Below are positions 4,279-31,961 of a DNA stretch of 32,000 bases, one piece after another; within the stretch, counting starts at the first letter, position 1; each line of letters opens with the position of its first letter. A program made the position numbers and the translations under genes. The stretch spans positions 1 to 32,000 of the forward strand of contig DDIL01000005.1 of assembly GCA_002338515.1 (NCBI GenBank), in the 5' to 3' direction. The notes beneath the pieces were generated by a model. That model saw only the letters and a program-made list of their open reading frames with translations. It had not been told where the DNA came from and did not search any database. This DNA is from Glaciecola sp. UBA1851. Lineage in GTDB: Bacteria; Pseudomonadota; Gammaproteobacteria; Enterobacterales; Alteromonadaceae.

Positions 4279-4295
4279 AAAATAGGAGAGAAACC

Positions 4296-4706: not shown

Positions 4707-4709
4707 ACT

Positions 4710-5129: not shown

Positions 5130-5131
5130 TA

Positions 5132-5434
5132 ATGAATATAAAAGAGTTTGAAGTTCAAAATGATAGTGCATTAATAAGCTTAAAAGCAATGGCGAATAAA
5201 TACAGATTGGGTATCTTATATTTATTAACCGAGCGTGATCAAAGCGTAAACGATTTAGCTTTGACTCTAGAATTACCGCAGCCGGTGGTGTCCCAACACC
5301 TTAAAGTATTGAAGGCTGCTGATATGGTATGTTTCACTAAAGACGGTGCGCAGCATAGTTATCGATTAGATAAAAAACAACTTGTCATGTCAGCCATGAT
5401 TTTCAAATTGTTTAACATAGAAACAGTCATTTAA
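5132..5434 (+). CDS. ArsR/SmtB-family winged-helix transcriptional regulator
   Basis: 100 aa. KALANKYRLGILYLL...SVNDLA..LELPQPVVSQHLKVLKAADMV is the ArsR HTH signature. Its ATG lies 2 nt after the preceding stop. Confidence 0.8.
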   Translation: MNIKEFEVQNDSALISLKAMANKYRLGILYLLTERDQSVNDLALTLELPQPVVSQHLKVLKAADMVCFTKDGAQHSYRLDKKQLVMSAMIFKLFNIETVI

Positions 5435-5535
5435 ACTGCACTTGGCCTTCTAATAAATGCAAGGAATAATGGCGTATGGTGTAGTTGGTTCATATTTTGC
5501 TAATGGTTGTATATCTAAACAACTTACTGAAAAAT

Positions 5536-7732: not shown

Positions 7733-8802
7733 TGGCACTGAATACTCAGTCTTTTATTCAATCACTTATTCGTGAAGGCTATACGCATTTGTGTGTTGTG
7801 CCTTGTAGTTTTGCTAAATATGTCATCAATGCAGCTATTAATTCACCGCACATAACCTATATGCCCTGTGCTAGCGAGGCTATTGCTTGCTCAAGCGCGG
7901 CAGGACTAAAAATAGCCGGTAAAAAACCGATTGTTATTGTGCAATCATCGGGCATGACTAATATGGGTTCATGTATCACTAGTTTATTAAAGCCATACCA
8001 TGTTTACTTTCCTATTCTAACTAGCTGGCGTACTTACAAAGAAGGCGATAGCGAGGTACAACATGCTCATCTTGCTACTTGTTTGCCTGAACTCATAAAC
8101 GCTTATGGTTATGAACATTCATTGCTAGATAAACAAGATGAAGTAAAAGCAATAGAGCAAATTAATCAAGCAGATGTATCACCTAGTATCATCATTATGA
8201 GTAGTGGAAGCTTTAGTGAAGTACAATTAGAAGAGAAACATAAAAACGACTTGTCAGAATACCTACCTAGAAGTCAATTTCTTACCCTGCTCAACAAAGG
8301 CTATAGTCACGAACATACTGTCATGGTGGGCACAACCGGCAATACCGCTCGCGAGATGTATCAGTTTATGCCAAACACAAATAACTTATACATGGCAGGT
8401 AACATGGGCGGTGCATTAAGTTTGGGTTTAGGTATAGCGTTAGCGGGTAAACCAGTTGTAGTATGTGGCGGTGATGCTGAATTTGTAATGCATATGGGTG
8501 GCATGACAACTGCAGGTCGCTATGCTGAAAATATGCAATTAATTTATATATTGTTTGATAATGAAGCCAATAAATCTACCGGTGGTCAAAACACATATCA
8601 ATCACATGTTAATTACAGCGGTATTGCCGAGTCATCGGGTTTCCAGTGTATTGAAAATACTATTAAAACAACAGCTGAATTTGAATTGTGCATGAAAGAA
8701 GTGAAAGATAAAACAGGCTTATATTTTATGCATATTAAATGTAGTTATGATGCGGAAACGCCTCGCCCACCAGTTGAAGTGGTTACCGCTTTACCATTAT
8801 GA
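7732..8802 (+). CDS. ppd: phosphonopyruvate decarboxylase (ThDP-dependent)
   Basis: 356 aa. The N-terminus (F...L...GYTHLCVVPCSFAK) and the ThDP motif (GGDAEFVMHMGG...LFDNEANKSTGGQ) are typical of Ppd/AepY. Its ATG shares one nucleotide with the pepM stop. Confidence 0.8.
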   Translation: MALNTQSFIQSLIREGYTHLCVVPCSFAKYVINAAINSPHITYMPCASEAIACSSAAGLKIAGKKPIVIVQSSGMTNMGSCITSLLKPYHVYFPILTSWRTYKEGDSEVQHAHLATCLPELINAYGYEHSLLDKQDEVKAIEQINQADVSPSIIIMSSGSFSEVQLEEKHKNDLSEYLPRSQFLTLLNKGYSHEHTVMVGTTGNTAREMYQFMPNTNNLYMAGNMGGALSLGLGIALAGKPVVVCGGDAEFVMHMGGMTTAGRYAENMQLIYILFDNEANKSTGGQNTYQSHVNYSGIAESSGFQCIENTIKTTAEFELCMKEVKDKTGLYFMHIKCSYDAETPRPPVEVVTALPL

Positions 8803-9884
8803 ATAACGAATTTACTTATTGGCAACCTACAAAAATACAGTTTACCCATAATTGGTTAACAGCGCTTATTCCCCTTGTTAAAAATAGGCGCGTTTTATTG
8901 GTTACCTCAAAAGGTTTTGTTACGCGTGGTATTGTAGAGACGATAACGAGCAATATTCCAAGCGTAAGTTATGTGTGTGATAACATTGTTTCTCATCCTG
9001 AATTAAAGGATTTACAGAAAGCGTATAAAGACGCGCACGTTTATAAATATGACTGCATTATTGCAATAGGTGGCGGCAGTGTATTAGACGCCGCTAAATT
9101 TTTAAGTGTAATAATAAGTAATGCAGAGGGTAAATCAGCTATAGATTCAGTCACGCGTTTAGTAAAAGACTCAACTAGCGTTAGCGGTTACGCTACCTTA
9201 CCTATTATTGCTATTCCAACAACATCTGGTACGGGTAGTGAGGTAACGCCGTGGGCGACTATTTGGGATAGTGAAATAAAAAAGAAATATTCGCTGCATT
9301 TACCCACGTTATTTAGTGAAGCTGCTATTTACGACCCCAATTTAACCATCAGTTTACCGATAGATATTACGCGACAAACTGCACTAGATACACTTTCTCA
9401 TGCCCTTGAGTCAATATGGAATAAACATGCAACGCCCATCACTGTGCAGCATGCTATTACTGCTGCGCAATTAATTTATAAGCATTTACCTAGCTTATTG
9501 TTTGAGCCAACTAACCTTGCATTACGTGAACAAATAATGCTGGCGACTATGCATGCTGGCATGGCGTTTTCACAAACACAAACCGCTATGGCTCATGCAC
9601 TTTCATATTACATTACTGCAAATAAAGGTATACCTCATGGTATAGCCTGCAGCTTTACCTTGCCTATGTTAATAGATGAAGTAATTGGTCAATATGATTT
9701 TGTAGATAATGCATTAAAGGCTATTTTTACAGAGCTTTCTTCTGACCCACTTCGTGAGATGTATAAATCAATTGGACTATTAACTGAGTTTTCTGACTAT
9801 GGGTTGTCTGATTCTGAGGTAGTCAATTTAATTGAATCGGTTAATAACCAACCGCGCGCAAAAAATTCGTTAGTTTCACTTTAA
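8799..9884 (+). CDS. group III iron-dependent alcohol dehydrogenase, probable phosphonoacetaldehyde reductase (PhpC/FomC-like)
   Basis: GGGSVLDAAK, PTTSGTGSEVT and His-rich metal ligands (HALESIW, HAGMAF, MAHALSY). ATGA overlap with ppd. Its position after pepM-ppd matches 2-hydroxyethylphosphonate pathways. Confidence 0.7.
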   Translation: MNNEFTYWQPTKIQFTHNWLTALIPLVKNRRVLLVTSKGFVTRGIVETITSNIPSVSYVCDNIVSHPELKDLQKAYKDAHVYKYDCIIAIGGGSVLDAAKFLSVIISNAEGKSAIDSVTRLVKDSTSVSGYATLPIIAIPTTSGTGSEVTPWATIWDSEIKKKYSLHLPTLFSEAAIYDPNLTISLPIDITRQTALDTLSHALESIWNKHATPITVQHAITAAQLIYKHLPSLLFEPTNLALREQIMLATMHAGMAFSQTQTAMAHALSYYITANKGIPHGIACSFTLPMLIDEVIGQYDFVDNALKAIFTELSSDPLREMYKSIGLLTEFSDYGLSDSEVVNLIESVNNQPRAKNSLVSL

Positions 9885-17924: not shown

Positions 17925-20906
17925 ATGAAAAACAGCAAAAATAATATAACCTTCGAGAATCAGCGCCCTCATTGGATGCGATTCAAAAAAACTATGGTAG
18001 CTGTGGGTATTAGTGCAGCCGTTGCACATACCCCTCTTTATGTGCATGCTCAAGAAACCTCAGAACAAGCGACTGAAGAAGAGTCTGCAGAGGTTATTAA
18101 TGTTAGAGGGCAACGACAAAGTTTGACTGCTGCCCAAGAACTTAAACGAAATGCTGATACCTTCCTTGACGCAATTTCAGCATCAGATTTAGGCGCTCTT
18201 CCTGATGCTAGTGTTGTTGAAGCATTACAACGTGTTCCAGGTATTACAATAGAGCGGTTTGCTGCACCTGATGACCCAGACCATTTCTCAACGGAGGGCA
18301 GTGATGCAACACTTCGTGGCCTTCCTCAAACTCGTACCGGAATTAACGGGCGCGATAGCGTTGCCGCAGATTCATCAAATGGTTTAGGTTTCGATGACAT
18401 TTCACCTCAATTGCTTGGAAGTGTTGAAATTTATAAAAACCAAACTGCTGATATGATTGAAGGGGGTATTGCAGGTACTATTAACTTGAATACCCGCAAA
18501 CCTTTTGATTCTTCATCTCGAATTCTTAATTTTGAGTTGCAAGGCAGTGAAGGTAACTTATCAAAAGAACCCACATACGGGTTTTCTGGTTTATATTCTG
18601 ATGTATTTGACGTTTCAAGTGGTGAGGTAGGTGTATTGGTGAGCTATAGCTCGGTAGACCTAACGTTTAGAGCCGATGGGGCGGAGCTAGGCCAGCATAA
18701 TTTAGTGGCTGATGCTGCGGGTGCCGGGCAAGACAGATGGACACCTATCAATGCAGGCGTTCGCTCAACTACTACTGATCGTGAACGTGAAGCTGCCTCC
18801 TTTACTTTGCAGTATCAAAATTCTGACGAAACCTTTTTATCTACGTTTGAATATATTCTATCAGACTCAGCAACAAATTGGTCAGAGCATGCATTCTTTT
18901 CAGATGATCAAGCTTATACAAGCTTAGGTGATGATGTTACGTTTGGTAACGAATCATTTACTGGCGGTACACTACAAGGTATTCAAGATGGCTTAGGCCC
19001 GCAAACACGCAAAAGTTCAAGCGAAGAAAAGCTAGAAGAATTTACTTTTAACGTTGCATATAAGCCAACTGATCGTTTAACACTTGAGTTTGATGTGCAA
19101 TATGTTGATGCTACTACCGACGTAGTAGATTTATCAGTATTTGGCGGCATTATTCCTAGGCTTGGCGGTATCGATATTGAAGTAGACGCAATGGGCGATA
19201 CTCCAGTTGTTGGCTTTAGGGCACCCTCTGGTTCTGGCCTAAGCGATGCTGAATTTTTCAGCGACCCTAAGAACTATTTCTATCGTGCAGCCATGGACCA
19301 CGTTGAAGAATCTGAAGGCGATCAAAGTGCATTTCAGTTTGATGTAGACTATGAACTAGAGCATGACATGCTAGATTCAGTTGAAGTAGGCGCGCGTTAT
19401 GCTGAGCGTGATCAAACAACACGTTGGTCAACCTATAATTGGCAAAACTTATCTGCCGAATGGGCCGGTGGTTGGGTTGATTTTAATGGTGACAGAATAC
19501 AACCATCTTGGAATGGCGATACAGCATTTCAGCCAACGGGTGAAACCTTGGATACCCCCGGATTTGAGTCATTTGCCTATCCGGGCTTTCACAATGGTAA
19601 TGCTGGAAGTCCTATAAACAGCCTGTTTGCGTCGTTTAATAGTGTACAAAGCTATGATACATTTTTACAAAGCTATTCTGCCTTTAACTTTCCAAGTTTG
19701 GGTACAAGGGGGGATGTGGTAGATGGCAGTATTTATCGCCCTGCTGAGCTTAACCGTGTGGTAGAGGAAAACACGGCGTTTTACGCTAAGTTAAATTTTG
19801 GTGGTGATTCTCGTGTCTCGGGCAACGTAGGATTAAGGTACGTCAACGTAGATACGTCGGTAGATGGTGGCGAAACTTTCCCTGTTCAGCTATCTGACAA
19901 TCTTGTATTAACTGCGGATGAAATGGCGTTTTTCAATGATGCGAGTATTGTTAGGTCAACCAGCAACAGTTACAGCGCTGTATTGCCTAGTTTGAACGTA
20001 AAATACCTTCTTGGCGATGATTTACTTCTTCGTTTTGCTGCATCAAAATCTGTGGCGTTTGCTGACACGGGTAACTTACGGTACAACTATAACTACACAA
20101 CAGATACAATTGAAATTGACCCAGATGTTGATATGTCACCTGTACGCATTGATCAAATAGAAAGGCGAAGTGGCAATCCATTCTTAGCTCCCATGGAGTC
20201 AATTGACTTAGACTTGTCAGTAGAGTGGTACTTTGATGAGGGTGATTCACTTACAGTGGGTGTTTTCCATAAAGATATTGAAGGTTTTTTCTCAAACGAT
20301 ACTTTCAGTCAGCAGGTAACCAACAATGGAGTAACTTTACCTGTACAGGTAAGTACCACAATTAATGTAGGCAGTGGCACTTTAAAAGGTCTAGAAATAG
20401 GCTATCAGCAGTTCTTTGACGAGTTGCCGGGTTTATTTAGTAATTTAGGCTTACAATTCAACGCAACATTCTTAAGGGAAAGTGGTACACCTAATCAAAA
20501 TACCCGTCCTGTCCAATCAGGTGGGGAAGACGATGTGGCCAGAGCCGAATTGCCGTTTGAAGGTTTGCCTCTGCAAGGTTTGTCTGAAACAACATACAAT
20601 ATTGTGGGTTTGTATGAAGATGATGTTATTTCTGCTCGTTTAGCTTATAACTATCGCTCAGATTATTTATTGACTGTTCGTCAAACTAACCTCGGTATAC
20701 CTATTTTTAACCAGGCTCGAGGTCAACTCGATGGGTCTGCTTTTTATAGTATTACAGATAATATTGAAGTGGGTATTCAGGGGCAAAACTTAACCAAGTC
20801 TGAGTCAAATACGCGTATGCAAGTGGACCAGGAAGGGACAACGGTGGTCAGATCGTCATTTACGAATGACCGAAGATTATCGTTAATTGTAAGAGGTCGA
20901 TTCTAA
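17925..20906 (+). CDS. TonB-dependent outer-membrane receptor (carbohydrate/oligosaccharide type)
   Basis: Signal peptide ending VHAQE. Acidic linker and TonB-box-like EVINVRGQRQS. Plug motifs (DAISASDLGALPDASVVEALQRVPGITIER, GSVEIYKNQTADMIEGGIAGTINLNTRKPF). Long beta-barrel ending in ...LIVRGRF with a terminal Phe. Shine-Dalgarno aggaag. Confidence 0.9.
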   Translation: MKNSKNNITFENQRPHWMRFKKTMVAVGISAAVAHTPLYVHAQETSEQATEEESAEVINVRGQRQSLTAAQELKRNADTFLDAISASDLGALPDASVVEALQRVPGITIERFAAPDDPDHFSTEGSDATLRGLPQTRTGINGRDSVAADSSNGLGFDDISPQLLGSVEIYKNQTADMIEGGIAGTINLNTRKPFDSSSRILNFELQGSEGNLSKEPTYGFSGLYSDVFDVSSGEVGVLVSYSSVDLTFRADGAELGQHNLVADAAGAGQDRWTPINAGVRSTTTDREREAASFTLQYQNSDETFLSTFEYILSDSATNWSEHAFFSDDQAYTSLGDDVTFGNESFTGGTLQGIQDGLGPQTRKSSSEEKLEEFTFNVAYKPTDRLTLEFDVQYVDATTDVVDLSVFGGIIPRLGGIDIEVDAMGDTPVVGFRAPSGSGLSDAEFFSDPKNYFYRAAMDHVEESEGDQSAFQFDVDYELEHDMLDSVEVGARYAERDQTTRWSTYNWQNLSAEWAGGWVDFNGDRIQPSWNGDTAFQPTGETLDTPGFESFAYPGFHNGNAGSPINSLFASFNSVQSYDTFLQSYSAFNFPSLGTRGDVVDGSIYRPAELNRVVEENTAFYAKLNFGGDSRVSGNVGLRYVNVDTSVDGGETFPVQLSDNLVLTADEMAFFNDASIVRSTSNSYSAVLPSLNVKYLLGDDLLLRFAASKSVAFADTGNLRYNYNYTTDTIEIDPDVDMSPVRIDQIERRSGNPFLAPMESIDLDLSVEWYFDEGDSLTVGVFHKDIEGFFSNDTFSQQVTNNGVTLPVQVSTTINVGSGTLKGLEIGYQQFFDELPGLFSNLGLQFNATFLRESGTPNQNTRPVQSGGEDDVARAELPFEGLPLQGLSETTYNIVGLYEDDVISARLAYNYRSDYLLTVRQTNLGIPIFNQARGQLDGSAFYSITDNIEVGIQGQNLTKSESNTRMQVDQEGTTVVRSSFTNDRRLSLIVRGRF

Positions 20907-20925
20907 ACATCCCCTTCTCAAATTT

Positions 20926-20970
20926 AGCTGTAGGTGCTATGTTTATGGTATCTACAGCTTGTTTGTTTTT
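20926..20970 (+). terminator. possible leaky intrinsic terminator/attenuator between the receptor and the halogenase-fold genes
   Basis: An 8-bp stem, agctgtag (20926-20933) pairing with ctacagct (20952-20959), followed by tgtttgttttt. The 18-nt loop is long, so the structure is weak. Confidence 0.3.
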
Positions 20971-21008
20971 GGCGGCGTAATTACCTAAGAGTCTATTTTA
21001 AAGAGTGT

Positions 21009-22565
21009 ATGCAAAGTAATTCCATCAAAAAAATAGTGATTGTTGGTGGCGGGACAGCCGGTTGGATGACCGCCGCTGCATTGTCATCGTTACTAGATAA
21101 GACACAGGTTTCCATATCCCTAATTGAATCCGAGCAAATTGGTACAGTGGGGGTTGGCGAAGCGACCCTTCCTCATCTACGGTTTTTTATCAAGCGCCTT
21201 GGTATTGATGAACAAGAGTTTATGCGCCGCACTAATGCAACGTATAAAACGGGCATTGAGTTTATTAATTGGGGGCAAGTAGGTGAAAGTTACTTGCATC
21301 CATTTGGTGATTTCGGTCAAAGCATCAATAGCGTTGATTTTCATCATTACTGGGTAAAACAGCGACAAACAGGAGACAAAACCGATATTGGCGATTATTC
21401 CCTGCCAGTTGTAGCATCAAAAATGGGTAAGTTTGATTACCCTAGTTCTGACGAGCAATCTATTTTATCTACGTTTTCTTACGCTTTTCATTTAGATGCA
21501 GGGCTGTTCGCCAAGTTTCTACGAGAATACTCTGAAGAAAAAGGTGTAGTGCGTACTGAAGGATTGATCAAACACGTCAAACAAGACGACAAAACAGCTT
21601 TCATATCATCAGTGACCTTAGACAGTGGCCAGTCAATTGAAGGTGACCTATTCATTGATTGCTCAGGCTTTAGAGGGTTGTTAATCGAACAAACACTTAA
21701 AACGGGTTACGATGATTGGCGACATTGGTTGCCATGCGACCGAGCAATTGCCATTCCTTGCGAAACCATGAGTGCGCCTTTACCCTATACTAAAGCAACC
21801 GCACGTGATGCTGGATGGCAGTGGCGTATACCGCTGCAAAATAGAGTAGGAAATGGTCATATTTATTCTAGTTCATATATGGACGATACGACGGCATTAG
21901 ATGTTTTATTACAAGGCTTGGATGCTAAACCTACAGGTGATCCAAATTTCCTACGTTTTACCACAGGAAGGCGTAAAAAAGCATGGAATAAAAACTGTGT
22001 GGCAATTGGTCTGTCAGGTGGGTTTTTAGAACCTCTTGAAAGTACCAGTATTCATCTTATTCAACTGGGTATCATGAAATTGTTAGAATTTTTCCCAGAC
22101 AAGCATTGCGATGAAATAAAAAGCGCAGAATACAATCGCATGATGAGTTTAGAATTTGAACGCTTACGTGATTTTTTAGTGCTGCATTATCATGCAACAA
22201 GACGAAATGACACAGATTTTTGGAACTATGTGCGTACTATGAGCTTACCAGATGGACTCGAACATAAAATGGAATTGTTTAAAGAACGTGGGCATGTTGT
22301 GCAATATACTGAAGGCTTATTTTTAAAAGCAAGTTGGCTTGCTGTCTATTTGGGGCAGGGGGTCATACCTACCCATTATGATTACAATGTGGATGCTCAA
22401 CCTCAAGCAAAAGTTGAAAACTTCTTAAAACAGCTTAAAGGTAATATTTCTGATGCAGCCGCGGGTATGAATGACCACGCTATAAGTTTAGCAAATCATT
22501 GCGATATAAACGTTAATCAAACTCCACCTCCAGCTAGTATGAGTTTATATGGAAGAGACGCTTAA
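21009..22565 (+). CDS. flavin-dependent tryptophan-halogenase-fold protein, paralogue 1 (motifs intact)
   Basis: IVIVGGGTAGWM (GxGxxG, 21045-21062), GVGEATLP, TYKTGIEF, FIDCSGFRGLLIE, GWQWRIPL (WxWxIP), GGFLEPLESTSIHL. The ATG at 21009 (MQSNSIKK...) is preferred over the track's 20934 start. Confidence 0.85.
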   Translation: MQSNSIKKIVIVGGGTAGWMTAAALSSLLDKTQVSISLIESEQIGTVGVGEATLPHLRFFIKRLGIDEQEFMRRTNATYKTGIEFINWGQVGESYLHPFGDFGQSINSVDFHHYWVKQRQTGDKTDIGDYSLPVVASKMGKFDYPSSDEQSILSTFSYAFHLDAGLFAKFLREYSEEKGVVRTEGLIKHVKQDDKTAFISSVTLDSGQSIEGDLFIDCSGFRGLLIEQTLKTGYDDWRHWLPCDRAIAIPCETMSAPLPYTKATARDAGWQWRIPLQNRVGNGHIYSSSYMDDTTALDVLLQGLDAKPTGDPNFLRFTTGRRKKAWNKNCVAIGLSGGFLEPLESTSIHLIQLGIMKLLEFFPDKHCDEIKSAEYNRMMSLEFERLRDFLVLHYHATRRNDTDFWNYVRTMSLPDGLEHKMELFKERGHVVQYTEGLFLKASWLAVYLGQGVIPTHYDYNVDAQPQAKVENFLKQLKGNISDAAAGMNDHAISLANHCDINVNQTPPPASMSLYGRDA

Positions 22566-24167
22566 GTGAGTGAGCATGACCGAGGGCCTATTCAAAATAT
22601 TTGCATTTTGGGTAAACATTTACATGTCGCTTCAGTCGCCGCCGCGCTCAGCCGTAAATTTATGCAGCAAAATATTAATATTATAGCGGTTAACACTGAG
22701 GGTAACGATAAATCAGTTTATGGTGAAGCTTCACTTAGTGCACTTCATTATTTTCATCGCTTTTTGGGGCTAAAAGAGCATCAAATGATGGCGGTAACCA
22801 GCGCAACTTACAAACTTGCATCGCAATATAAAAGGTGGTCATGCAGTGAGGCTAATGACACTAGCGAAAAAAACAAGCATTCCTCTTTCTATCATTCGTT
22901 AAGTAGTTACGGAAGTATGATTGATTCAATTGCTTTTGTTCATCATTTGACCAAACTTCGCCAAAACAATAAAAACTATGACTTTACCTGCTTCTCATTG
23001 CCTGCAGTCATGGCGCGAAACGGTAAGTTTGCTAAACCTGAATCGGCACAGTCAGCATTACCCTATAGCTATGCAATGCACATTGATGCAACCTCCTATG
23101 CTAAGGGTATGCAGGATTACGCAACTAAGCTAGGCGTTAAGTTTATATCTAGTAATATAGATAACGTACAGCTCAAATATATTGAAAATAATCTCGGTCA
23201 ACCTTCCGCGCACGTAAAACAAGTAACCTTGAGCGATGGCAGGCAAATAAAATCTGAATTATTTATCGATTGTACTAGCGATGGTGAGTTAATTGACAAG
23301 GCATTAAACGTTGGTTTTGAAGATTGGAGTGAGTATTTACCTTGTGATCGTTTTTTGACATGCAAAACAGAGTTAGATTTACAATTACAGCCTTCTACAA
23401 ATATGAATTTGCACAAAAATGGATGGGAACGCAGTTTTCCTCTGCAAAATGGAACCGTAAAAGAATTCTTTTACTCAAGCAAATACTTAAGCGATGATGA
23501 AGCGGTAAAAGAATTTGAAGTTAATCATTTAAAAGATACTAAAATCCTAAGTGAATGCCGTATAGAAAAACAAAGGACAGGTCGTCGAAAACAATTTTTT
23601 AGTGGTAATTGCGTGTCTATGGGAGGAGCAGCAGGCAGTTTAGATAGACTGGCCGTTAGTGATTTTCATTTAGTGCAATCAGCTGTATTGCGCTTAATTG
23701 ACTTATTTCCTGATACCTCGTTAGGTCAGTTTGCAGATAATTTTAGCCGCAATGAATATAATCATTTATGTACCGAAGAATATGCACGTATTTTAGATTA
23801 TCACGGCGCACATTTTGCTATCCCAGCAAAAGAAGCTGATGAATCCTGTAGCCAATTTTGGCAAGCGCAAAAAACAGCAATATTACCCGACTCACTTGTA
23901 AAAAAATTTAATTTATTTGAGGCCTGTGGGCGTATACCTTTTTATGAAAGGGAAACGTTTTCTAGTTCAACTTGGGTGTCATTATTATTGGGTTTAGGCA
24001 TGCATCCAAAAAGTTATGATGTGTTATTAGATATGCCTCCAGCTAGCAATGAACGAAGCATAAAAGCAATAAACAACATTATGAATACAATCAAGGATAT
24101 AAGTGATCGCGCCCCCTCTCATGCCCAATACTTGCGCCAGTATTGTGTACGACGAAACAATAGGTAG
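22566..24167 (+). CDS. tryptophan-halogenase-fold paralogue 2, with degenerate FAD-binding and catalytic motifs (probable pseudo-enzyme)
   Basis: Collinear with its neighbours (FIDC, TGRRK, YLPCDR and LFPD retained). However, GxGxxG reads ILGKHLHV, GVGEAT reads VYGEAS, WxWxIP reads GWERSFPL, and EPLEST reads SLDRLAVSD. The GTG start directly abuts the paralogue 1 stop. Confidence 0.75.
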   Translation: MSEHDRGPIQNICILGKHLHVASVAAALSRKFMQQNINIIAVNTEGNDKSVYGEASLSALHYFHRFLGLKEHQMMAVTSATYKLASQYKRWSCSEANDTSEKNKHSSFYHSLSSYGSMIDSIAFVHHLTKLRQNNKNYDFTCFSLPAVMARNGKFAKPESAQSALPYSYAMHIDATSYAKGMQDYATKLGVKFISSNIDNVQLKYIENNLGQPSAHVKQVTLSDGRQIKSELFIDCTSDGELIDKALNVGFEDWSEYLPCDRFLTCKTELDLQLQPSTNMNLHKNGWERSFPLQNGTVKEFFYSSKYLSDDEAVKEFEVNHLKDTKILSECRIEKQRTGRRKQFFSGNCVSMGGAAGSLDRLAVSDFHLVQSAVLRLIDLFPDTSLGQFADNFSRNEYNHLCTEEYARILDYHGAHFAIPAKEADESCSQFWQAQKTAILPDSLVKKFNLFEACGRIPFYERETFSSSTWVSLLLGLGMHPKSYDVLLDMPPASNERSIKAINNIMNTIKDISDRAPSHAQYLRQYCVRRNNR

Positions 24168-24175
24168 TTATATTT

Positions 24176-25738
24176 ATGAATACACCACAAAATGCAGTCA
24201 ACCAAGCAAAAAATGATAATCAAGTTCGTGATATTTTAATAGTCGGTGGTGGTACCGCTGGGTGGATGGTTGCTGCGGCTTTAGCAAAGAATTTTGGTAA
24301 TAAGGGCCGAAAAATAAGACTCATTGAGTCAGAAGAGATTGGTACAGTGGGAGTGGGTGAAGCAACCATTCCTTTTATTCGTACCTTTAATCAATTGCTA
24401 GGTATTGATGAAAACGAGTTTGTAAGGGAAACAAAAGGTACGTTTAAGCTAGGAATTGAATTCAATGACTGGGGCAAATTGGGTGACAGCTATATTCATC
24501 CATTTGGTGTATATGGTTCACCCATGGCCGACAATATACCCTTTCATCACTATTGGCTAAAACTCAGAAATGAAGGCATTGAAACTAATCTTTCAGATTA
24601 TTCATTAGCTATAATAGCCGCGAAAAAGGAGCGGTTTAGCCGTCCTGTCAATATTCAAAACTCACCTATGGCGTCGCTTAATTATGCTTTTCAATTTGAT
24701 TCTGGTTTATATGCTAAATTTTTACGCAAGTTTGCAGAAAGTCGAGGTGTAGAAAGGGTCGAAGGTAAAGTTAGTTCTGTTCAGGTAAATCAAGATACCG
24801 GTTATATTGATTCAGTGACGATGCAGAATACGTCAAGTGATATAGCAGGCTCGGTTAAATATCACGCTGATTTCTATATTGATTGCTCAGGATTTAGAGG
24901 CTTGTTAATAGAAGGAGCTTTGCATACTGGTTATGAAGACTGGACGCATTGGCTTCCTTGTGACCGCGCTGTTGCAGCACCTTGCGCTGCAAATGGAGAA
25001 CCCTTACCCTATACACGCTCAACCGCTAGAAAAGCAGGATGGCAATGGCGTATACCGCTACAACATAGAACCGGAAATGGGCATGTATTCAGTAGTCAGT
25101 ATATGAGTGTTGATGAAGCAACATCTATTTTACTTAATAGTCTTGATGGAGAATTACTTGCCGAGCCCAAAGTGTTAACATTCCAAACGGGACGGCGCAA
25201 AAAAACGTGGAACAAAAACTGTCTTGCTATTGGTTTGTCAGGTGGCTTTATGGAGCCTCTGGAAAGTACTAGTATTCATTTAATTCAATCAGCCATCGCT
25301 AGACTAATAAGCCTATTTCCAGATAAAGATTTCAATGACGCTATTGTTAACCGGTTTAACGATGAGTCTAAATGGGAATATGAACGCATTCGTGACTTTT
25401 TAATACTACACTATAAGCTTAATCAACGTACCGATTCAGAGTTTTGGATGTACTGTCAAAATATGGCGATTCCCGATTTTCTGCAGAGCAAACTCGACCT
25501 ATATCGTAGCAGCGGGCATATTTTTAGAGATAATGAAGAGTTATTTGGCATTCCGAGCTGGTTAGCTGTAATGGAGGGGCAAAACTTTCATGCAGATGGT
25601 TGCCATCCTTTACCTGACGCAAGGGAATCGAGTCGATTGCATGAGCATTTATTAAAAATAGGTTCCGTAATCGACAGGTGCGCAGATAGTATGCCTACTC
25701 ATGCTGAGTTTATTAATAAACATTGTAAAGCTAGTTAA
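24176..25738 (+). CDS. flavin-dependent tryptophan-halogenase-fold protein, paralogue 3 (motifs intact)
   Basis: ILIVGGGTAGWM, GVGEATIP, TFKLGIEF, YIDCSGFRGLLIE, GWQWRIPL, GGFMEPLESTSIHL. Starts 8 nt after the paralogue 2 stop. Confidence 0.85.
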   Translation: MNTPQNAVNQAKNDNQVRDILIVGGGTAGWMVAAALAKNFGNKGRKIRLIESEEIGTVGVGEATIPFIRTFNQLLGIDENEFVRETKGTFKLGIEFNDWGKLGDSYIHPFGVYGSPMADNIPFHHYWLKLRNEGIETNLSDYSLAIIAAKKERFSRPVNIQNSPMASLNYAFQFDSGLYAKFLRKFAESRGVERVEGKVSSVQVNQDTGYIDSVTMQNTSSDIAGSVKYHADFYIDCSGFRGLLIEGALHTGYEDWTHWLPCDRAVAAPCAANGEPLPYTRSTARKAGWQWRIPLQHRTGNGHVFSSQYMSVDEATSILLNSLDGELLAEPKVLTFQTGRRKKTWNKNCLAIGLSGGFMEPLESTSIHLIQSAIARLISLFPDKDFNDAIVNRFNDESKWEYERIRDFLILHYKLNQRTDSEFWMYCQNMAIPDFLQSKLDLYRSSGHIFRDNEELFGIPSWLAVMEGQNFHADGCHPLPDARESSRLHEHLLKIGSVIDRCADSMPTHAEFINKHCKAS

Positions 25739-25953
25739 CCTGAACTCGGGATAAGCAAACCCGTCCAGCAGCGCTATTAGAGCGAATAATTGCGTTACCA
25801 AACTAAGCAATAGAATAACTTTAATTGACTTTACCGCCTTGTTCTTCACTTTAATACAATCACTGAATTATGATATTAATTTGCTTATCTCGAATTGAGG
25901 TTAAATTATACCATTAGTATTGTTTTAGAATTAAAGAGGATATTACACCGTGC

Positions 25954-27039
25954 TTAAAAAATTAAACTAGATAAAGCGTTTGAAAATGTATTGCTACTTC
26001 TATCATAAATTTGAAAAGAGCCACCGTCGCACCAAACAGTGCCGGGTATGCCAAATTCTTTCTGCAATGCCACATGTGCTTTTAAATATTCAAGACGATC
26101 GTTTTCATTACAGATATTTTGAGGTTGCGTGAAATCATACATAGCCGCGCCAAATTCATTTACAATCACGGGAATACCAAAATTTTCAGACCAATTAGAT
26201 ACATCTTGATAAATCTCTCTCAACGCCAATCTATCTGCTTCACTGCCCCATGATCTAGTGCATTGGCCTGCAAATGGCCAAGGGTCATAAGAATGGAAAT
26301 TTGCAATGATATTTGGGTCATTTGGTATATCGGCTTGTTTCATCGCTTCAGCTGGGGTGTACCCATTGCCAGAGTATATGACTGAACGTGTGGGGTTTGA
26401 TTGTCTGATCACTGCTAGTACTTCAAGGTTTAGTGAGTCTACTTGTTCTAATGTCATGCCATTAGGTTCGTTTAAAATTTCAAATAGCAATTTGGATGAT
26501 TTGTTTTTAAATCTGTCAGCAACTTGAGTCCAAATGGCTACGAAACGTGCGCGTTTTTCTGCGTTGATATCATTTTTTAACCATGATTCATGATGCGCAT
26601 TGATCATAACGTAAAAATCTCTTTCTATCGCCCAATCAACAATTTCTTCTACTCGATTAAAAAAGTCATCATTCACTTCATATGGTGATTGATTAGCAAC
26701 TCGCTTATCCCAAGTAATAGGGATTCTGACATGTCCGAAACCTGCTGTTTTATATGCATCATAATAATACTCTTGGGCTGCTAATGCCCATTCACCCTCA
26801 CTAGGAGCGTCAAGTGTATTTCCCATATTTATACCCGTTCCCAATGCTGCAACAATTTCTGTTGGAGTCTGATAATTAGCATCTGGGGTAGGCGTATTAG
26901 TAGTCGGTGGTGGCAAGTTTGGTGGAGTAATTTGATTGTCAGGCGTAGCTACTTCCATGGTTGAATTACTTGACCCGCATCCAAACATAAGCAAAACATA
27001 TAATATTATAAATGTTAACTTTGAAGTTTTAGTAAACAT
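25954..27039 (-). CDS. GH5 glycoside hydrolase (endo-beta-glycanase), probable lipoprotein
   Basis: Signal sequence plus Cys (LLMFGC). Pro/Thr linker (PPNLPPPTTNTPTPD). GINMGNTLDA. Acid/base motif FEILNEPNG and nucleophile motif VIVNEFGA. Confidence 0.8.
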   Translation of the reverse strand: MFTKTSKLTFIILYVLLMFGCGSSNSTMEVATPDNQITPPNLPPPTTNTPTPDANYQTPTEIVAALGTGINMGNTLDAPSEGEWALAAQEYYYDAYKTAGFGHVRIPITWDKRVANQSPYEVNDDFFNRVEEIVDWAIERDFYVMINAHHESWLKNDINAEKRARFVAIWTQVADRFKNKSSKLLFEILNEPNGMTLEQVDSLNLEVLAVIRQSNPTRSVIYSGNGYTPAEAMKQADIPNDPNIIANFHSYDPWPFAGQCTRSWGSEADRLALREIYQDVSNWSENFGIPVIVNEFGAAMYDFTQPQNICNENDRLEYLKAHVALQKEFGIPGTVWCDGGSFQIYDRSSNTFSNALSSLIF

Positions 27040-27127
27040 ATAGCCCCCCTGAGAGCTTTTTAATTGAGGCTATTGGAATTCAATAGCACCTCATTATTGT
27101 TCTGATATTATCTATTTCGATGTAAAA

Positions 27128-27141
27128 TGTAAACGCTTACA
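27128..27141. promoter_or_regulatory. LacI-family (XylR-like) operator in the divergent GH5/GH10 intergenic region
   Basis: TGTAAACGCTTACA, 87 bp upstream of the GH5 start codon and 372 bp upstream of the GH10 start codon. Confidence 0.5.
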
Positions 27142-27512
27142 TTTATTTTTTAATATTCACAAGTTATTTACAATTAAGTGTGTTAAATAACCATTTTACT
27201 GGCATGAAATTTTGTAGTTCCGTGTATTATTTTAGGTATTCACATTATGATTTTTGATTTAAGTGTTGTTTGAATACCCAATATAATTCGTGATTTAACG
27301 AGTGGATCCAACATGTTTAATATACATTTTCGTATTTAAGTATATGAAATAAATAACTATTTATTTAGATTTTGTTTTATTGAAGTAGTGGTGTCTTTTC
27401 TAAATAGGCAGCGATTGGCTTCATTTTATAATCATAAATACAGTTAACAAATTCCTCATCTATAGCTAATATCCATTAAATGTTAAATTAGTGTGGTTTT
27501 TGAAGGTCTGAA

Positions 27513-28652
27513 ATGAAAAATATTAAACTAAGTGTGATTATGTTTGGGTGCATGTTTATCCTTTCTTGCTCAATCAAAAGCGGAAAGATTAATGATATTT
27601 CCAATAGTAGTTTAGCAGATGTTTTTAGTGAAGGATTTGATTTAGGTGTAGCCGTTAACCGCAATCAAATGTTGGGAATTGAAAAACCACAACAGCAAAT
27701 TGTGAGTCAGCACTTTAATGCACTCACACCCGAAAATGATATGAAGTGGAGCACGCTGCAACCTTCTGAAGGTAGTTTTGATTTTACAGGTGCAGATGCC
27801 CTAATAAATTATGCAGCAGAAAATAATAAGAAAATTATTGGCCACGTATTAGTTTGGCATCAGCAAGTACCGGAATGGCTATTTGTTGATGAGCAAGGCA
27901 AACAAGTTACAAGAGAAGTGCTTCTATCTAGAATGAAATCACATATTTTTGAAGTGGCAGGTAGGTATAAAAACCAAATTTATGGTTGGGATGTCGTCAA
28001 TGAAGCATTAAATGATGATGGTAGTCTACGAGAGTCTAAATGGCTTGAAATTATTGGTGAAGACTTTATTGATTATGCATTTTTATATGCTTCCCAAGCA
28101 GCGCCAAACGCTAAACTGTATTACAACGATTACAATCTGTTTAAACAAGAAAAAATTACGGGTGCACTGACAATTGCCGAACGACTAAAACGCAAGGGAA
28201 TTCGAATTGATGGGATTGGTGCACAAGCGCATTATGGGCTAAACCCACCTGTTGCAGAATTAGAAAAAACTATTCAGCGAGTTATTTCTCAGCAATTAGA
28301 TTTTATGATAACGGAACTGGATATTACCGTCTTAAAATTTCCCGAGCCTGAAAAAATGGGGGCAGATGTGAGTCTAAATGTTGAATATGCAGAAGAATAC
28401 AATCCTTATGCTGAAAGTATGTCAAACGAAGCCTTGCAAGCATTGGCACAAAGTTATATCGATTTATTTGAGCTTTTTTGGAAGTACCGCGACCACATCA
28501 GTAGAGTCACTCTTTGGGGAGTAAGTGATGGTGATTCATGGAGAAACTATTGGCCCATGCAAGGAAGAGTTGACTACCCTTTATTATTTGACCGAGCTTA
28601 CCAAGCAAAACCTTTTGTACAAGATTTAATAAACATACCTCAAAGTCAATAA
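27513..28652 (+). CDS. GH10 endo-1,4-beta-xylanase, probable lipoprotein
   Basis: Lipobox-like FILSC. GH10 acid/base motif GWDVVNEAL and nucleophile motif MITELDITV. NDYN and WHQQVPEW are also present. Confidence 0.9.
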   Translation: MKNIKLSVIMFGCMFILSCSIKSGKINDISNSSLADVFSEGFDLGVAVNRNQMLGIEKPQQQIVSQHFNALTPENDMKWSTLQPSEGSFDFTGADALINYAAENNKKIIGHVLVWHQQVPEWLFVDEQGKQVTREVLLSRMKSHIFEVAGRYKNQIYGWDVVNEALNDDGSLRESKWLEIIGEDFIDYAFLYASQAAPNAKLYYNDYNLFKQEKITGALTIAERLKRKGIRIDGIGAQAHYGLNPPVAELEKTIQRVISQQLDFMITELDITVLKFPEPEKMGADVSLNVEYAEEYNPYAESMSNEALQALAQSYIDLFELFWKYRDHISRVTLWGVSDGDSWRNYWPMQGRVDYPLLFDRAYQAKPFVQDLINIPQSQ

Positions 28653-28688
28653 CAGCATTCTTTATTCTTATTTTTGGATTATATACTA

Positions 28689-30323
28689 ATGACACAATCA
28701 ATGATTGAAAACCCAATTTTACCAGGTTTTAACCCTGACCCAAGTATTGTTGCGGTTGGCGACGACTACTATATTGCTACTTCTACGTTTGAATGGTATC
28801 CAGGCGTGCAAATACACCACTCTAAAGATTTGAAAAATTGGCGTCTCGTTAAACGACCGCTTGATAGAGAATCTTTGCTCGACATGCGTGGCGCGCCAGA
28901 TTCATGTGGAATATGGGCGCCTTGTTTAAGTTATAGCAATGGCAAGTTTCATCTGATTTTTACTGATGTGAAGCGGTTTCAAGGTAACTTTAAAGATGCC
29001 CATAATTATTATACGAGTTGTGAAACCATAAATGGAACCTGGTCTGACCCTATTTATATGAATTCCAGTGGTTTTGACCCATCTTTGTTTCATGATGATG
29101 ATGGGAAGATGTGGTTTGTTAATATGGTATGGGATCATCGCCATAAACATAATCAATTTGGTGGTATTTTATTGCAAGAATATTGTCCGAAGCAGCAAAA
29201 GCTTGTTGGAGAAGTTAAAAACATATTTAAAGGAACAAGTTTAGGTCTCACAGAAGCACCACACTTATTTAAAAGAAACGGTTATTATTATTTGTTAACT
29301 GCAGAAGGTGGGACGTTTTATACACATGCAATGACAATGGCACGTTCAAAGAATATTGATGGCCCATATGAAAACGATCCATATGGGTATTTGTTAACAG
29401 CAAAAGACAACCAGCATTTACGATTACAGCGTTCAGGCCATGGAGATCTGGTTGAAACCAGTGACGGGCAAACTTACTTAGTGCATTTATGTGGCAGACC
29501 ATTGGCCGGCGAGAGAAGATGTCCATTAGGTAGGGAAACTGGCATACAAAAAACCTATTGGACAGAAGATGATTGGCTACGTGTTGAAGGAGCCATTACT
29601 GACGGTTTACCTTCTTATGAAGTTCCTGCTCCTGCATTGAATGAGTATCCATGGCCAAAAGACCCTATTCGCTATGATTTTAACGATAATGCTTTGCCTA
29701 TAGCCTTTCAATGGTTGCGTACTCCGTTTCCCGAAAGGCTTATGAATTTAAATGCTAGACCAGGCTTTTTGAGATTAATTGGTAGAGAGTCGATAGGCAG
29801 CCTTTATGAACATGCATTGGTTGCGCGTAGACAACAAGCATTTAAATATCGCTCACAAATTTCAATGGAATTCCAACCTACTAGTTTTCAGCAAATGGCT
29901 GGGCTAGTTGTCTATTACAACTGTCATAAATTTCATTATTGTTATGTTTCAATTGATGATGATGGAAATCGTTTTATCGATATTATGAGTTGCCTTGGTG
30001 ACACATCTCAAGAGTTAACCTACCCGCTTCGAGAAGGTGAATTGGAGATTGGAAGAACTGATTCTAGGTTTATTTTACCCAATACAAGTACTTTGTTTAT
30101 TCGCGCATTAGTTGATCATCACATTCTACATTTTGAGTTTTCTTTAGATGAAAAAAATTGGACGCGTTTACCTGTTAATCTTGACCAAAGTATTGTTTCT
30201 GATGAAGCTGGTGGGGGCGACGGTGCGAATTTTACAGGGGCATTTATCGGCATGGCGTGTCAAGATTTGACCGGTCAAGCTTTAGTGGCTGACTTTGATT
30301 ATTTTGAGTACGAAGAGCTATAA
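28689..30323 (+). CDS. GH43 beta-xylosidase/alpha-L-arabinofuranosidase (XynB-like) with a C-terminal beta-sandwich domain
   Basis: NPILPGFNPDPS (catalytic Asp), YYIATSTFEW, CGIWAPCL, TEAPHLFKRNGYYYLLTAEGG, and a ~200-aa C-terminal domain ending in DFDYFEY. The ATG at 28689 is preferred over the TTG at 28674. Confidence 0.9.
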   Translation: MTQSMIENPILPGFNPDPSIVAVGDDYYIATSTFEWYPGVQIHHSKDLKNWRLVKRPLDRESLLDMRGAPDSCGIWAPCLSYSNGKFHLIFTDVKRFQGNFKDAHNYYTSCETINGTWSDPIYMNSSGFDPSLFHDDDGKMWFVNMVWDHRHKHNQFGGILLQEYCPKQQKLVGEVKNIFKGTSLGLTEAPHLFKRNGYYYLLTAEGGTFYTHAMTMARSKNIDGPYENDPYGYLLTAKDNQHLRLQRSGHGDLVETSDGQTYLVHLCGRPLAGERRCPLGRETGIQKTYWTEDDWLRVEGAITDGLPSYEVPAPALNEYPWPKDPIRYDFNDNALPIAFQWLRTPFPERLMNLNARPGFLRLIGRESIGSLYEHALVARRQQAFKYRSQISMEFQPTSFQQMAGLVVYYNCHKFHYCYVSIDDDGNRFIDIMSCLGDTSQELTYPLREGELEIGRTDSRFILPNTSTLFIRALVDHHILHFEFSLDEKNWTRLPVNLDQSIVSDEAGGGDGANFTGAFIGMACQDLTGQALVADFDYFEYEEL

Positions 30324-30338
30324 TATTTAGTTATAAGA

Positions 30339-30387
30339 TTAGGGTCTGTTGATCTTTACTGTATGAATTTTGTTCAACAGACCCTAA
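30339..30387 (+). other. long hairpin (14-bp perfect stem, 21-nt loop) immediately after the GH43 gene
   Basis: ttagggtctgttga (30339-30352) pairs perfectly with tcaacagaccctaa (30374-30387). Confidence 0.5.
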
Positions 30388-30415
30388 AGCATTCACTTGA
30401 TTGTGAATGCTTTTT
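30388..30415 (+). terminator. rho-independent terminator of the GH10-GH43 operon
   Basis: agcattcac-ttgatt-gtgaatgct (9-bp stem, 6-nt loop) followed by tttt. Confidence 0.7.
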
Positions 30416-30554
30416 CAATCAAATTTACATATCTCATCAACCTTATTATTGAGCCTACATTACTTACTTTGCATAGCTAAATGTTATGTTTTTGTAAAAT
30501 AATTGTCAGAAATCATGAAAATCCATTTGCAAATGCCCCTTAAGCTTATTAATA

Positions 30555-30568
30555 TGTAAGCGCTTTCA
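30555..30568. promoter_or_regulatory. LacI-family (XylR-like) operator upstream of the GPH symporter
   Basis: TGTAAGCGCTTTCA, 47 bp upstream of the transporter start codon. Confidence 0.5.
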
Positions 30569-30614
30569 AAACGAAGGCGGCAATATATTTCTTTCGCAGA
30601 ATCAAGGCAATCAA

Positions 30615-31961
30615 GTGGAAAAATTAAGCATTAAAGAAAAAATCGGATTTGGTCTTGGAGACGCTGCCAGCAACATTGTTTTTCAGATGGTGTTGCTTTA
30701 CATGCTCTTTTTCTATACCGACGTATTTGGTATTTCTGCAACCGCTGTCGGCACACTATTTTTAGTTGTCAGAATTTTTGATGCAATCACCGACCCCATT
30801 ATGGGAGGAATAGCAGATCGCACCAAAACTAAATATGGACGATACCGCCCATATTTATTATGGATGTGCATCCCTTATGGTATTTTTGCGGTTCTAGCCT
30901 TTTCTACCCCCGATCTATCTGATACTGGCAAACTCATATACGCGTGTATTACTTATGCGCTTTTAATGACAATGTATACTGCGATTAACATTCCATATTC
31001 CGCTTTAGGCGGGGTGATGACCACTAATAGAAATGAACGAGCGTCGTTACAATCATATCGTTTTATGTTGGCTATGGTGGGAGGTACGATAGTCGCGGCA
31101 AGTGTGTTACCTATGGTAGGCTTTTTTGGTGGTGACGACAATCCTGCATTTGGCTATCAAATGGCAATGATTGTACTTTCAATATTTGCCGTACTTTGCT
31201 TCGTATGTTGTTTCTTATTGACGAAAGAACGAGTAACTGTGGATGACGAAACACACAGAGTTGATTCTGACAAACCTTCTATTTATCAAGACGCGTTAGA
31301 TATGATAAAAAATGATCAATGGCGCATTATTGCGTTTGTGTCATTTTTATCGTTAGCAAGCGGCGCTATGAAGGGCGCCGTCACACCTTTTTATGTTCAA
31401 TATTATCTGCAACAGCCAGATATGATAAGCGTCTTTTTAACCGCAGGGACGGTAGCGTCTTTGTTTGGCGCTTTATTTGCTAATTTAATGACCGGTAAAA
31501 TTTGTAAAGTTAAATTAATGAAGCTGGCAGTAATAGGCAGCTTAATCTTACATGCTGCTATTGTGTTTATTCCATCAGATCAACTTTATCTGTCTCTCTT
31601 TGTAACTAGCGCAGCCGCTTTTGCACATATGGTATTCACGCCACTACTTTTTTCTGCCGTACCAGATACGGTTGATTATGGCATTAAAAAATATGGAAAA
31701 GGTGCAATGGGGATGGGGGTTTCTGGCCATTTATTTGCTTTAAAACTCGGCTTGGCTGTTGGCGGGGCATGTGCTGGCTGGGTGCTGGGTTATGTTGGTT
31801 ATGTGGCTAATGCAGAGCAAACTCAAGAATCATTAAATGGTATTGTATTTTTAATGGGAGCGAGCAGTGCCATTGCATGCACCTTGATACTACTTTTATT
31901 GAATCGTTACGTACTGTATAGCAAAAAAGAAGATTTAAATGTAAATACAGTGGCTAGTTAG
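30615..31961 (+). CDS. glycoside-pentoside-hexuronide (GPH):cation symporter, probable xyloside/xylo-oligosaccharide transporter
   Basis: KIGFGLGDAASNIVFQ...FYTDVFGISA..VGTLFLVVRIFDAITDPIMGGIADRTKTKYGRYRP is the MelB/YicJ/XynP family signature. About 12 hydrophobic segments. GTG start. Confidence 0.85.
   Translation: MEKLSIKEKIGFGLGDAASNIVFQMVLLYMLFFYTDVFGISATAVGTLFLVVRIFDAITDPIMGGIADRTKTKYGRYRPYLLWMCIPYGIFAVLAFSTPDLSDTGKLIYACITYALLMTMYTAINIPYSALGGVMTTNRNERASLQSYRFMLAMVGGTIVAASVLPMVGFFGGDDNPAFGYQMAMIVLSIFAVLCFVCCFLLTKERVTVDDETHRVDSDKPSIYQDALDMIKNDQWRIIAFVSFLSLASGAMKGAVTPFYVQYYLQQPDMISVFLTAGTVASLFGALFANLMTGKICKVKLMKLAVIGSLILHAAIVFIPSDQLYLSLFVTSAAAFAHMVFTPLLFSAVPDTVDYGIKKYGKGAMGMGVSGHLFALKLGLAVGGACAGWVLGYVGYVANAEQTQESLNGIVFLMGASSAIACTLILLLLNRYVLYSKKEDLNVNTVAS

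Follow-up and report, generated by a model that had tools for sequence, protein, structure and literature searches.

The closest solved relative of the protein described here is BrvH, which forms a dimer like PrnA and RebH and whose gene has a second halogenase gene adjoining it (PMC5945002). Enzymes of the BrvH type can brominate indole in vitro and are not known to have a native substrate (PMC5945002; PMC7754283). In 2010, Iyer, Abhiman, de Souza and Aravind described gene neighbourhoods of Alpha- and Gammaproteobacteria in which a TonB-dependent receptor (TBDR) stands with ‘one to three tryptophan halogenases’ (together with SapC and a JmjC/2-oxoglutarate oxygenase); the halogenase homologues were said to have an intact Rossmann fold and a conserved lysine, and a halogenated, siderophore-like product was predicted (PMC2938197). 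Here we analyse a locus in Glaciecola sp. UBA1851 (positions 1 to 32,000 of contig DDIL01000005.1; the whole of this 32,000-nucleotide stretch is referred to as the window), in which the gene of a TBDR, an outer-membrane receptor for sugar uptake, is followed by three tandem halogenase-like genes, the second of which, paralogue 2 (22566-24167, plus strand), encodes a halogenase-fold protein of 533 amino acids with degenerate motifs. A first-pass annotation, made from the letters of the window alone, had treated this gene as a local oddity; it belongs instead to a widespread and apparently ancient class found in the halogenase arrays of Alpha- and Gammaproteobacteria. These motif-less copies are conserved and selected, hold a fixed second place in TBDR-linked arrays and are, in one lineage, fused to a canonical copy.

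The motif-degenerate paralogue and its orthologues

Paralogue 2 lies between two canonical flavin-dependent halogenase-like genes on the same strand, paralogue 1 (21009-22565, 518 amino acids), which carries GGGTAGW, GVGEAT, the lysine, WQWRIP and EPLES, and paralogue 3 (24176-25738, 520 amino acids), which has the complete motif set. As the first-pass annotation had stated, the GTG start of paralogue 2 at 22566 immediately follows the TAA of paralogue 1 (22563-22565) with zero gap, and its own stop, TAG at 24165-24167, is followed after 8 nt by the ATG of paralogue 3 at 24176; a Shine-Dalgarno-like GGAAGAG is found 8 nt 5' of the GTG. An open frame of 533 codons cannot be a product of chance in DNA of approximately 38% GC, and this is borne out by the full-length orthologues described below. 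The protein was also said to be full length and collinear with its neighbours, and this holds: it matches PF04820 with 300 bits (3.9e-89) over profile positions 13-455 of 458, compared to 648 and 625 bits for the neighbours (1e-194 for paralogue 1 and 7.6e-188 for paralogue 3), and a three-way alignment follows it over its full length at 29-32% identity to paralogues 1 and 3. No NCBIfam model matches paralogue 2. A recent local duplication of paralogue 1 or 3 was ruled out by this level of identity together with the clustering of paralogue 2 with other degenerate sequences in a neighbour-joining tree; this tree, being distance-based and midpoint-rooted with long branches, was not used to decide between a single and a multiple origin.

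Motifs were compared using the three-way alignment and by extracting columns over 263 homologues, with PrnA numbering taken from ungapped segment matches, which place W272/W274 on the tryptophans of WxWxIP and K79 on the retained lysine. The dinucleotide-binding VGGGTAGW of the neighbours is replaced by LGKHLHVA in paralogue 2, the remnant of GxGxxG being G16-K-H-L-H-V21 (22611-22628), which aligns to the GGGTAG of the neighbours. In the flavin adenine dinucleotide (FAD) loop GTVGVGEAT has become DKSVYGEAS, leaving V51-Y-G-E-A-S56 (22716-22733), and GVGEAT is absent throughout the subfamily. GWQWRIP has become GWERSFP (W287-E-R-S-F-P292, 23424-23441), and GGFLEPLESTS, with the catalytic and halide-binding EPLES segment, has become AGSLDRLAVSD (L359-D-R-L-A-V-S365, 23640-23660), all of these on the plus strand and placed by alignment. 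The second glutamate of EPLES corresponds to E346 of PrnA and its counterpart in paralogue 2 is Ala363. The motifs FIDC, LPCDR (within YLPCDR), TGRRK and LFPD are retained, as is the lysine of ATYKLA, Lys83 (22812-22814, plus strand), which a segment match equates with Lys79 of PrnA. Replaced and retained motifs alike are those that had been listed from the letters, and the losses suggest that paralogue 2 no longer binds FAD. After the lysine region, residues 93-105 (22842-22880) form a lineage-specific, low-confidence insertion, CSEANDTSEKNKH, whose length and sequence vary among the orthologues and which the canonical paralogues do not have.

A search of 5.8 billion proteins yielded 12 orthologue clusters (P0001-P0012, 38-99% identity), beyond which scores fall sharply to those of ordinary canonical halogenases at 33% identity or less. 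The orthologues are from Alteromonas, Aliiglaciecola, Agarilytica, Saccharophagus and metagenomes, the closest named ones being those of Aliiglaciecola (45%) and Alteromonas sediminis (43%). Full-length proteins were found in 11 of the 12 clusters, P0007 being short by about 40 N-terminal residues, and all 12 are without the same motifs as paralogue 2. The subfamily has conserved motifs of its own, namely FYHxxSxYGSMID, GxAAGxLxRLAVSxFHLVQSAVLRLIDLFPD, SRDEYNxLxxEEYARILDYH and GRIPFYERETFS, and none of its 12 aligned sequences departs from Lys83 or His110.

Paralogue 2 is clearly under purifying selection. The ratio of nonsynonymous to synonymous substitution (dN/dS), calculated between the window and a metagenomic locus carrying an 83%-identical orthologue (L004), was 0.05-0.06 for paralogue 1, 0.10-0.13 for paralogue 2, 0.035 for paralogue 3 and 0.04-0.05 for the TBDR, and between two Aliiglaciecola genomes (L003 and L007) it was 0.07, 0.14 and 0.04 for paralogues 1, 2 and 3 respectively. 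By this measure paralogue 2 is two- to threefold more relaxed than its neighbours; its dN is 2-5 times theirs, and mean column identity among the orthologues is 0.44 for paralogue 2 compared to 0.70 and 0.68 for the neighbours. In the Aliiglaciecola pair, dS of the degenerate gene was 0.44, which is 2.7 times the 0.16 of the flanking paralogues and could reflect recombination or different codon constraints. A pseudogene under relaxed selection was ruled out by the dN/dS values and the full-length orthologues.

An AlphaFold2 model of paralogue 2, made with the orthologue alignment, had a mean predicted local distance difference test score (pLDDT) of 84 and a predicted template modelling score (pTM) of 0.87, and its N-terminal beta-alpha-beta unit reached a pLDDT of approximately 94 despite the lost GxGxxG. 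Foldseek placed the model at template modelling (TM) scores of 0.85-0.92 to BrvH (6frl), Xcc4156 (6y1w) and 9luq. The two-module halogenase fold, comprising an FAD-binding box and a helical substrate module, is thus confidently predicted to be kept by paralogue 2. No degenerate member of the family was found among solved structures, all solved members, including the weakly matching entries 2pyx, 9lu2 and 9ltb, matching the canonical N-terminal segment with at least 53 bits and the central segment with at least 46 bits.

Degenerate second genes in receptor-linked arrays

In all 12 of the arrays of three or four halogenase genes that were inspected (the window, L001, L002, L003, L004/5, L006, L007, L008, L011, L012, L015 and L016), a degenerate gene takes second place among otherwise canonical ones, and these arrays cover Alteromonadales, Cellvibrionales, Caulobacterales, Rhodospirillales and Sphingomonadales, that is both Alpha- and Gammaproteobacteria. 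Arrays of one or two genes were canonical only in eight of eight cases (L009, L010, L013, L014, L017, L018 and two single genes of L019), and among the loci inspected, a small and partly kindred sample, no degenerate gene was seen alone, in a one- or two-gene array, or without canonical neighbours. Each related array of three or four has a TBDR gene either ahead of it or running divergently from it. The order TBDR, canonical, degenerate, canonical is repeated in the orthologous loci of Alteromonas sediminis (L001), a Saccharophagus metagenome-assembled genome (L002), Aliiglaciecola (L003 and L007), a metagenome (L004/L005) and Agarilytica (L006), where adjoining genes overlap by up to 11 nt or lie up to 13 nt apart; across all arrays the junctions are 0-13 nt or overlapping.

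The alphaproteobacterial arrays keep this order with very different degenerate sequences. A degenerate second gene is present in Asticcacaulis (L008), in a Niveispirillum plasmid with the order canonical, degenerate, canonical, canonical (L011), in a triad on a plasmid of Sphingomonas parapaucimobilis (L012) and in a tetrad of Sphingomonas sabuli (L016), which was reached via a canonical match and so was not picked for having a degenerate copy; a metagenome contig (L015) likewise has a degenerate second slot. The catalytic lysine, kept in paralogue 2, is replaced in the degenerate copies of several other loci, by Q in L002, by S in L008, L011 and L015, by R in L012 and by A in L016, suggesting that the second slot needs no halogenation chemistry. 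Together with the loss of the flavin motifs and of the Glu346 equivalent in paralogue 2 itself, this supports the view taken in the first-pass annotation that the protein is probably non-catalytic as a halogenase. A scan of contigs with the subfamily alignment gave three loci only, because its patterns are specific to the PFYERETF clade. In L012 (7001-8745) the third, canonical paralogue is split into two annotated coding sequences, by a frameshift or a sequencing error, and the degenerate second gene is intact.

More widely, 116 of the 263 aligned sequences are without GVGEAT, WxWxIP or EPLES and many of them are also without GxGxxG or the lysine, in a set that combines the first search with the best 150 HMMER cluster representatives and is biased to relatives of paralogue 2; judged by their motifs, degenerate halogenase-fold proteins are common in PF04820. 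Most degenerate copies of both classes have a GR-hydrophobic-Pro motif in the C-terminal module for which the canonical copies have no counterpart, and in most of the alphaproteobacterial ones it takes the form GR-h-P-x-Y/V-D/E, related to GRIPFYERETFS. Degenerate copies also mostly have GxA[AS] where canonical ones have GL[SA]xGF. These shared features hint at a single ancient origin of the degenerate class.

In one lineage the degenerate and canonical proteins are joined. A natural in-frame fusion of 984-985 amino acids (P0122, P0269, P0270 and P0272) begins with a degenerate domain that is complete and very divergent, continues through a linker of some 25 residues and ends in a canonical domain. 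Four assemblies, each from a different sample, contain it (90.5-99.9% identity), and the sequence of the linker differs among the four with the frame kept. At L015 (5447-8404), where a tetrad lies beside a TBDR, the fusion takes the place of the second and third genes, between two canonical ones. That the fusion is maintained is indirect evidence, of a classic type, for joint function of the two proteins, and it marks out the downstream canonical paralogue as the candidate partner. No other sequence retrieved exceeds 26% identity to the degenerate half, and an AlphaFold2 model of the fusion had a pTM of 0.67 with a pLDDT of approximately 60 in that half, which was represented by only four near-identical rows because all of the single-domain homologues aligned to the canonical half.

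Other partners of the arrays were noted. The canonical halogenases P0129 and P0239 are fused C-terminally to DUF6445, and free DUF6445 genes lie beside arrays at L008 (12029-13533), L009 (9541-10257) and L016 (1-410), making this a further conserved partner. In Thalassotalea agariperforans (L019, 2917-10875) a TBDR, SapC and a canonical halogenase are followed by a TPMT-like methyltransferase, and a second, divergent halogenase is encoded on the other strand. Halide/thiol methyltransferases are among the members of the TPMT family.

Where constraint sits and what paralogue 2 may do

A conservation ratio, the column identity of paralogue 2 divided by the mean of its neighbours, was calculated over seven syntenic triads. 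It was 0.36 for residues 41-60 (the FAD loop), 0.45 for residues 81-100 (the lysine region) and 0.48 for residues 281-300 (the WxWxIP region), and was 0.45 and 0.35 for residues 261-280 and 321-340, neither of which contains a named motif. In the helices past the former EPLES segment (residues 341-420) it was 0.69-0.78, and in residues 441-500, the part of the C-terminal module that includes GRIPFYERETFS, it was 0.86-1.0, so that this part is as conserved as it is in the neighbours. Low ratios at the flavin site and high ratios at 441-500 suggest that selection has shifted from the flavin site to the substrate-side module. The signature GRIPFYERETFS (23928-23963, plus strand) lies in this helical (substrate) module, P458-F465 (PFYERETF) being invariant in the 12 orthologues, and in a HMMER alignment PFY-E-RETF falls on the YY..E..F/W residues with which RebH holds tryptophan, a segment known as the ‘Trp4’ region (PMC8269204). 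On this pattern of conservation the C-terminal module of paralogue 2 may bind a ligand, contact another protein or do both.

Paralogue 2 is almost certainly not a pseudogene but a protein under selection that does not halogenate. That it is, beyond this, a pseudoenzyme acting as the non-catalytic partner in a TBDR-linked canonical-degenerate-canonical module is the reading we put forward as the best supported, and we consider it an even call; its physical association with the neighbours and the role of its C-terminal module are what we infer. Tight or overlapping gene junctions would keep the amount of paralogue 2 proportional to that of its neighbours, and the protein would form a heterodimer with one of the canonical paralogues, the downstream one being the most probable choice, that mimics the homodimer of the family. 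The canonical partner would supply the flavin site and paralogue 2 would supply the still-constrained C-terminal module for substrate or ligand, as well as structural stabilisation. A place as a subunit of a hetero-oligomer with its neighbours is plausible and indirectly supported, in that the degenerate gene is always second, the junctions are tight or overlapping, the relatives are dimeric and a fusion exists.

Several observations weigh against a pseudoenzyme partner of this kind. In the window, paralogue 2 still has Lys83 and the acidic residue ending strand beta-2, and deeper members of its subfamily (P0004, P0008-12 and L002) keep GxGxx[GAS], so some degenerate copies may still bind nucleotide. 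Since arrays of one or two genes are canonical only, canonical enzymes generally need no degenerate partner. The 12 arrays also share ancestry, so that the position rule does not amount to 12 independent observations.

Other explanations differ in what they make of the relaxed flavin site and the conserved C-terminal module. Paralogue 2 might be a stand-alone, non-catalytic ligand-binding protein, whose C-terminal module binds, sequesters, senses or hands over a small molecule linked to import by the TBDR, and which would require no stable complex with its neighbours. The constraint is indeed strongest in that module, where PFYERETF falls on tryptophan-binding residues of RebH, the flavin-site elements are the most relaxed, and FAD-binding folds are re-used without flavin elsewhere, for example in Rab GDI/REP. 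We nonetheless think this unlikely, as it leaves unexplained why the gene is never alone, always second and, in one lineage, fused to the next canonical paralogue, and neither it nor its canonical relatives are known to have a ligand (PMC7754283). It is improbable, too, that paralogue 2 is still an enzyme with a new chemistry or a non-canonical cofactor mode, for example a flavin-independent one using Lys83 and His110. The invariance of these two residues in the subfamily, the GxGxx[GAS] kept by several orthologues and a strong purifying selection that is compatible with catalysis would all suit such an enzyme. Set against them, the second and third glycines of GxGxxG are His and Val in paralogue 2, neither the GVGEAT loop nor the Glu346 equivalent remains, the lysine is replaced in other degenerate lineages occupying the same slot, and across all degenerate copies no conserved residue suggests a new active site.

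That the gene is decaying, as a young pseudogene, or that its frame stays open only so that ribosomes are handed to paralogue 3, we find hardly credible. Paralogue 2 does evolve faster than its neighbours, by column identity and by dN, and all of its catalytic motifs are counted here as lost; its dN/dS of 0.10-0.14 is, however, far under 1, its orthologues are full length down to approximately 40% identity, there are invariant motifs particular to the subfamily, the prediction of the fold is a confident one and the same slot is filled in Alpha- and Gammaproteobacteria. A frame kept only for coupling would leave the amino acid sequence free, and it is constrained. The first-pass annotation had argued against decay and had proposed that dN/dS be estimated across orthologues; the ratios obtained, and the occurrence of full-length orthologues in at least six genera in the same gene order, bear it out on this point.

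Returning to the pseudoenzyme partner, its consequence for those working with the family is that canonical BrvH-type enzymes may work with a non-catalytic paralogous partner, making the whole triad, and not a single gene, the unit to co-express. Flavin-dependent halogenases are heavily mined as biocatalysts, and sequences without GxGxxG and WxWxIP are usually discarded or fail silently. More tentatively, and with some doubt on our part, the arrays of three or four genes linked to TBDRs might encode an obligate hetero-oligomeric halogenase-like complex, in which an ancient flavin-less subunit, always encoded by the second gene, pairs with a canonical one and gives substrate recognition or allosteric control. 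If true, this would be the first hetero-oligomer of a family whose known members are all homodimers; it could account for the lack of a known native substrate for BrvH-type enzymes and for the weak, promiscuous activity that they show when assayed alone, and it would tie the family to the uptake or processing of glycan-associated compounds, not to antibiotic or siderophore synthesis.

Glycan-utilisation setting and known systems

The three halogenase-like genes belong to a glycan-utilisation locus spanning 17925-31961, annotated by Pfam and NCBIfam, with a TBDR, the three tandem PF04820 genes, glycoside hydrolases (GH) of families 5, 10 and 43 and a symporter. The first gene of the receptor-halogenase cassette encodes a TBDR of the TonB-Xanth-Caul subfamily (17925-20906, plus strand; PF07715, PF00593, and TIGR01782 at 7.4e-183). 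Between its stop and the start of paralogue 1, a consensus scan predicted a 15-bp hairpin with a T-run (20926-20969, plus strand), which is terminator- or attenuator-like and could hold expression of the halogenase trio below that of the receptor. The start of paralogue 1 is most likely the ATG at 21009 and not the GTG at 20934 given in the list of open reading frames, as the latter falls inside this hairpin. Downstream of paralogue 3 are genes for a GH5 protein (25954-27039, minus strand), a GH10 xylanase (27513-28652), a GH43 beta-xylosidase/arabinofuranosidase-like protein (28674-30323) and a glycoside-pentoside-hexuronide (GPH) symporter of the major facilitator superfamily (30615-31961).

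Arrays of three or four halogenase genes are mostly found in loci of this kind. GH5, GH43, GH9, GH3, LacI, XylR and xylose genes are near the orthologous arrays, and contexts across the related loci include GH5, GH10, GH43, GH9, GH3, GH1, xylose genes and LacI/XylR/AraC regulators. Between the window and L004/L005 the cassette of receptor and halogenases is kept, as are GH5 and GH43; the GH10 xylanase is absent in L004 (13247-16296) and reduced to a 36-amino-acid remnant in L005 (9866-12915), compared to 25954-30323 of the window, which suggests turnover among the glycoside hydrolases of the locus. Upstream in the window, an unrelated cluster (208-9884) contains two ABC exporter genes, metallo-beta-lactamase-fold, BLH phosphatase-like and LicD-family genes, a cytidylyltransferase-phosphoenolpyruvate mutase fusion (6419-7732), a thiamine pyrophosphate-dependent decarboxylase (7732-8802) and an iron-alcohol dehydrogenase (8799-9884), and looks like a phosphonate biosynthesis and attachment cluster of the aminoethylphosphonate/hydroxyethylphosphonate (AEP/HEP) type.

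In the literature we found no description of motif-less halogenase paralogues, of their fixed second position or of the fusion, which is weak evidence as subscription journals were thinly covered. A precedent for the proposed arrangement is found in LuxA/LuxB, where a flavin-dependent oxygenase has been tandem-duplicated and one copy, without a flavin site, is kept as the non-catalytic partner in a proven heterodimer. The logic of the halogenase trio may be alike; the folds are unrelated (TIM barrel in the one, PHBH/GR2-type in the other), and for the trio we infer the heterodimer that in LuxAB is proven.

Among halogenases, PrnA, RebH, PyrH and Thal have a fold in common with paralogue 2 (TM 0.80-0.85) and the Lys79 equivalent is kept, but identity is 21-24% and paralogue 2 is without the flavin motifs and the catalytic glutamate; tryptophan halogenases are, moreover, set in secondary-metabolite gene clusters whereas paralogue 2 is in a glycan-utilisation locus. 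Proteins of the BrvH/Xcc4156 type (6frl and 6y1w, and 9luq of Pseudoalteromonas sp. L11) share PF04820 with paralogue 2 at TM 0.85-0.92 and 27-29% identity. Paralogues 1 and 3 are typical members of this type with all of the motifs. BrvH itself is reported to have all three conserved regions (PMC5945002), in contrast to paralogue 2, which has lost GxGxxG, GVGEAT, WxWxIP and the Glu346 equivalent. The gene neighbourhood is of the same kind as the TBDR-halogenase one described in 2010, with SapC and DUF6445 genes in related loci, but differs from that description in that the second gene of the three- and four-gene arrays is degenerate and that genes for glycoside hydrolases and sugar transporters form part of the loci (PMC2938197). 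This corrects the earlier statement that an intact Rossmann fold and the catalytic lysine are kept by all TonB-receptor-linked halogenase homologues. The system belongs in glycan-utilisation loci (GH5, GH10, GH43, GH9 and GH3) and not in siderophore clusters, and the glycoside hydrolase and sugar contexts suggest that the module is tied to carbohydrate scavenging and not to a siderophore-like product as predicted in 2010 (PMC2938197).

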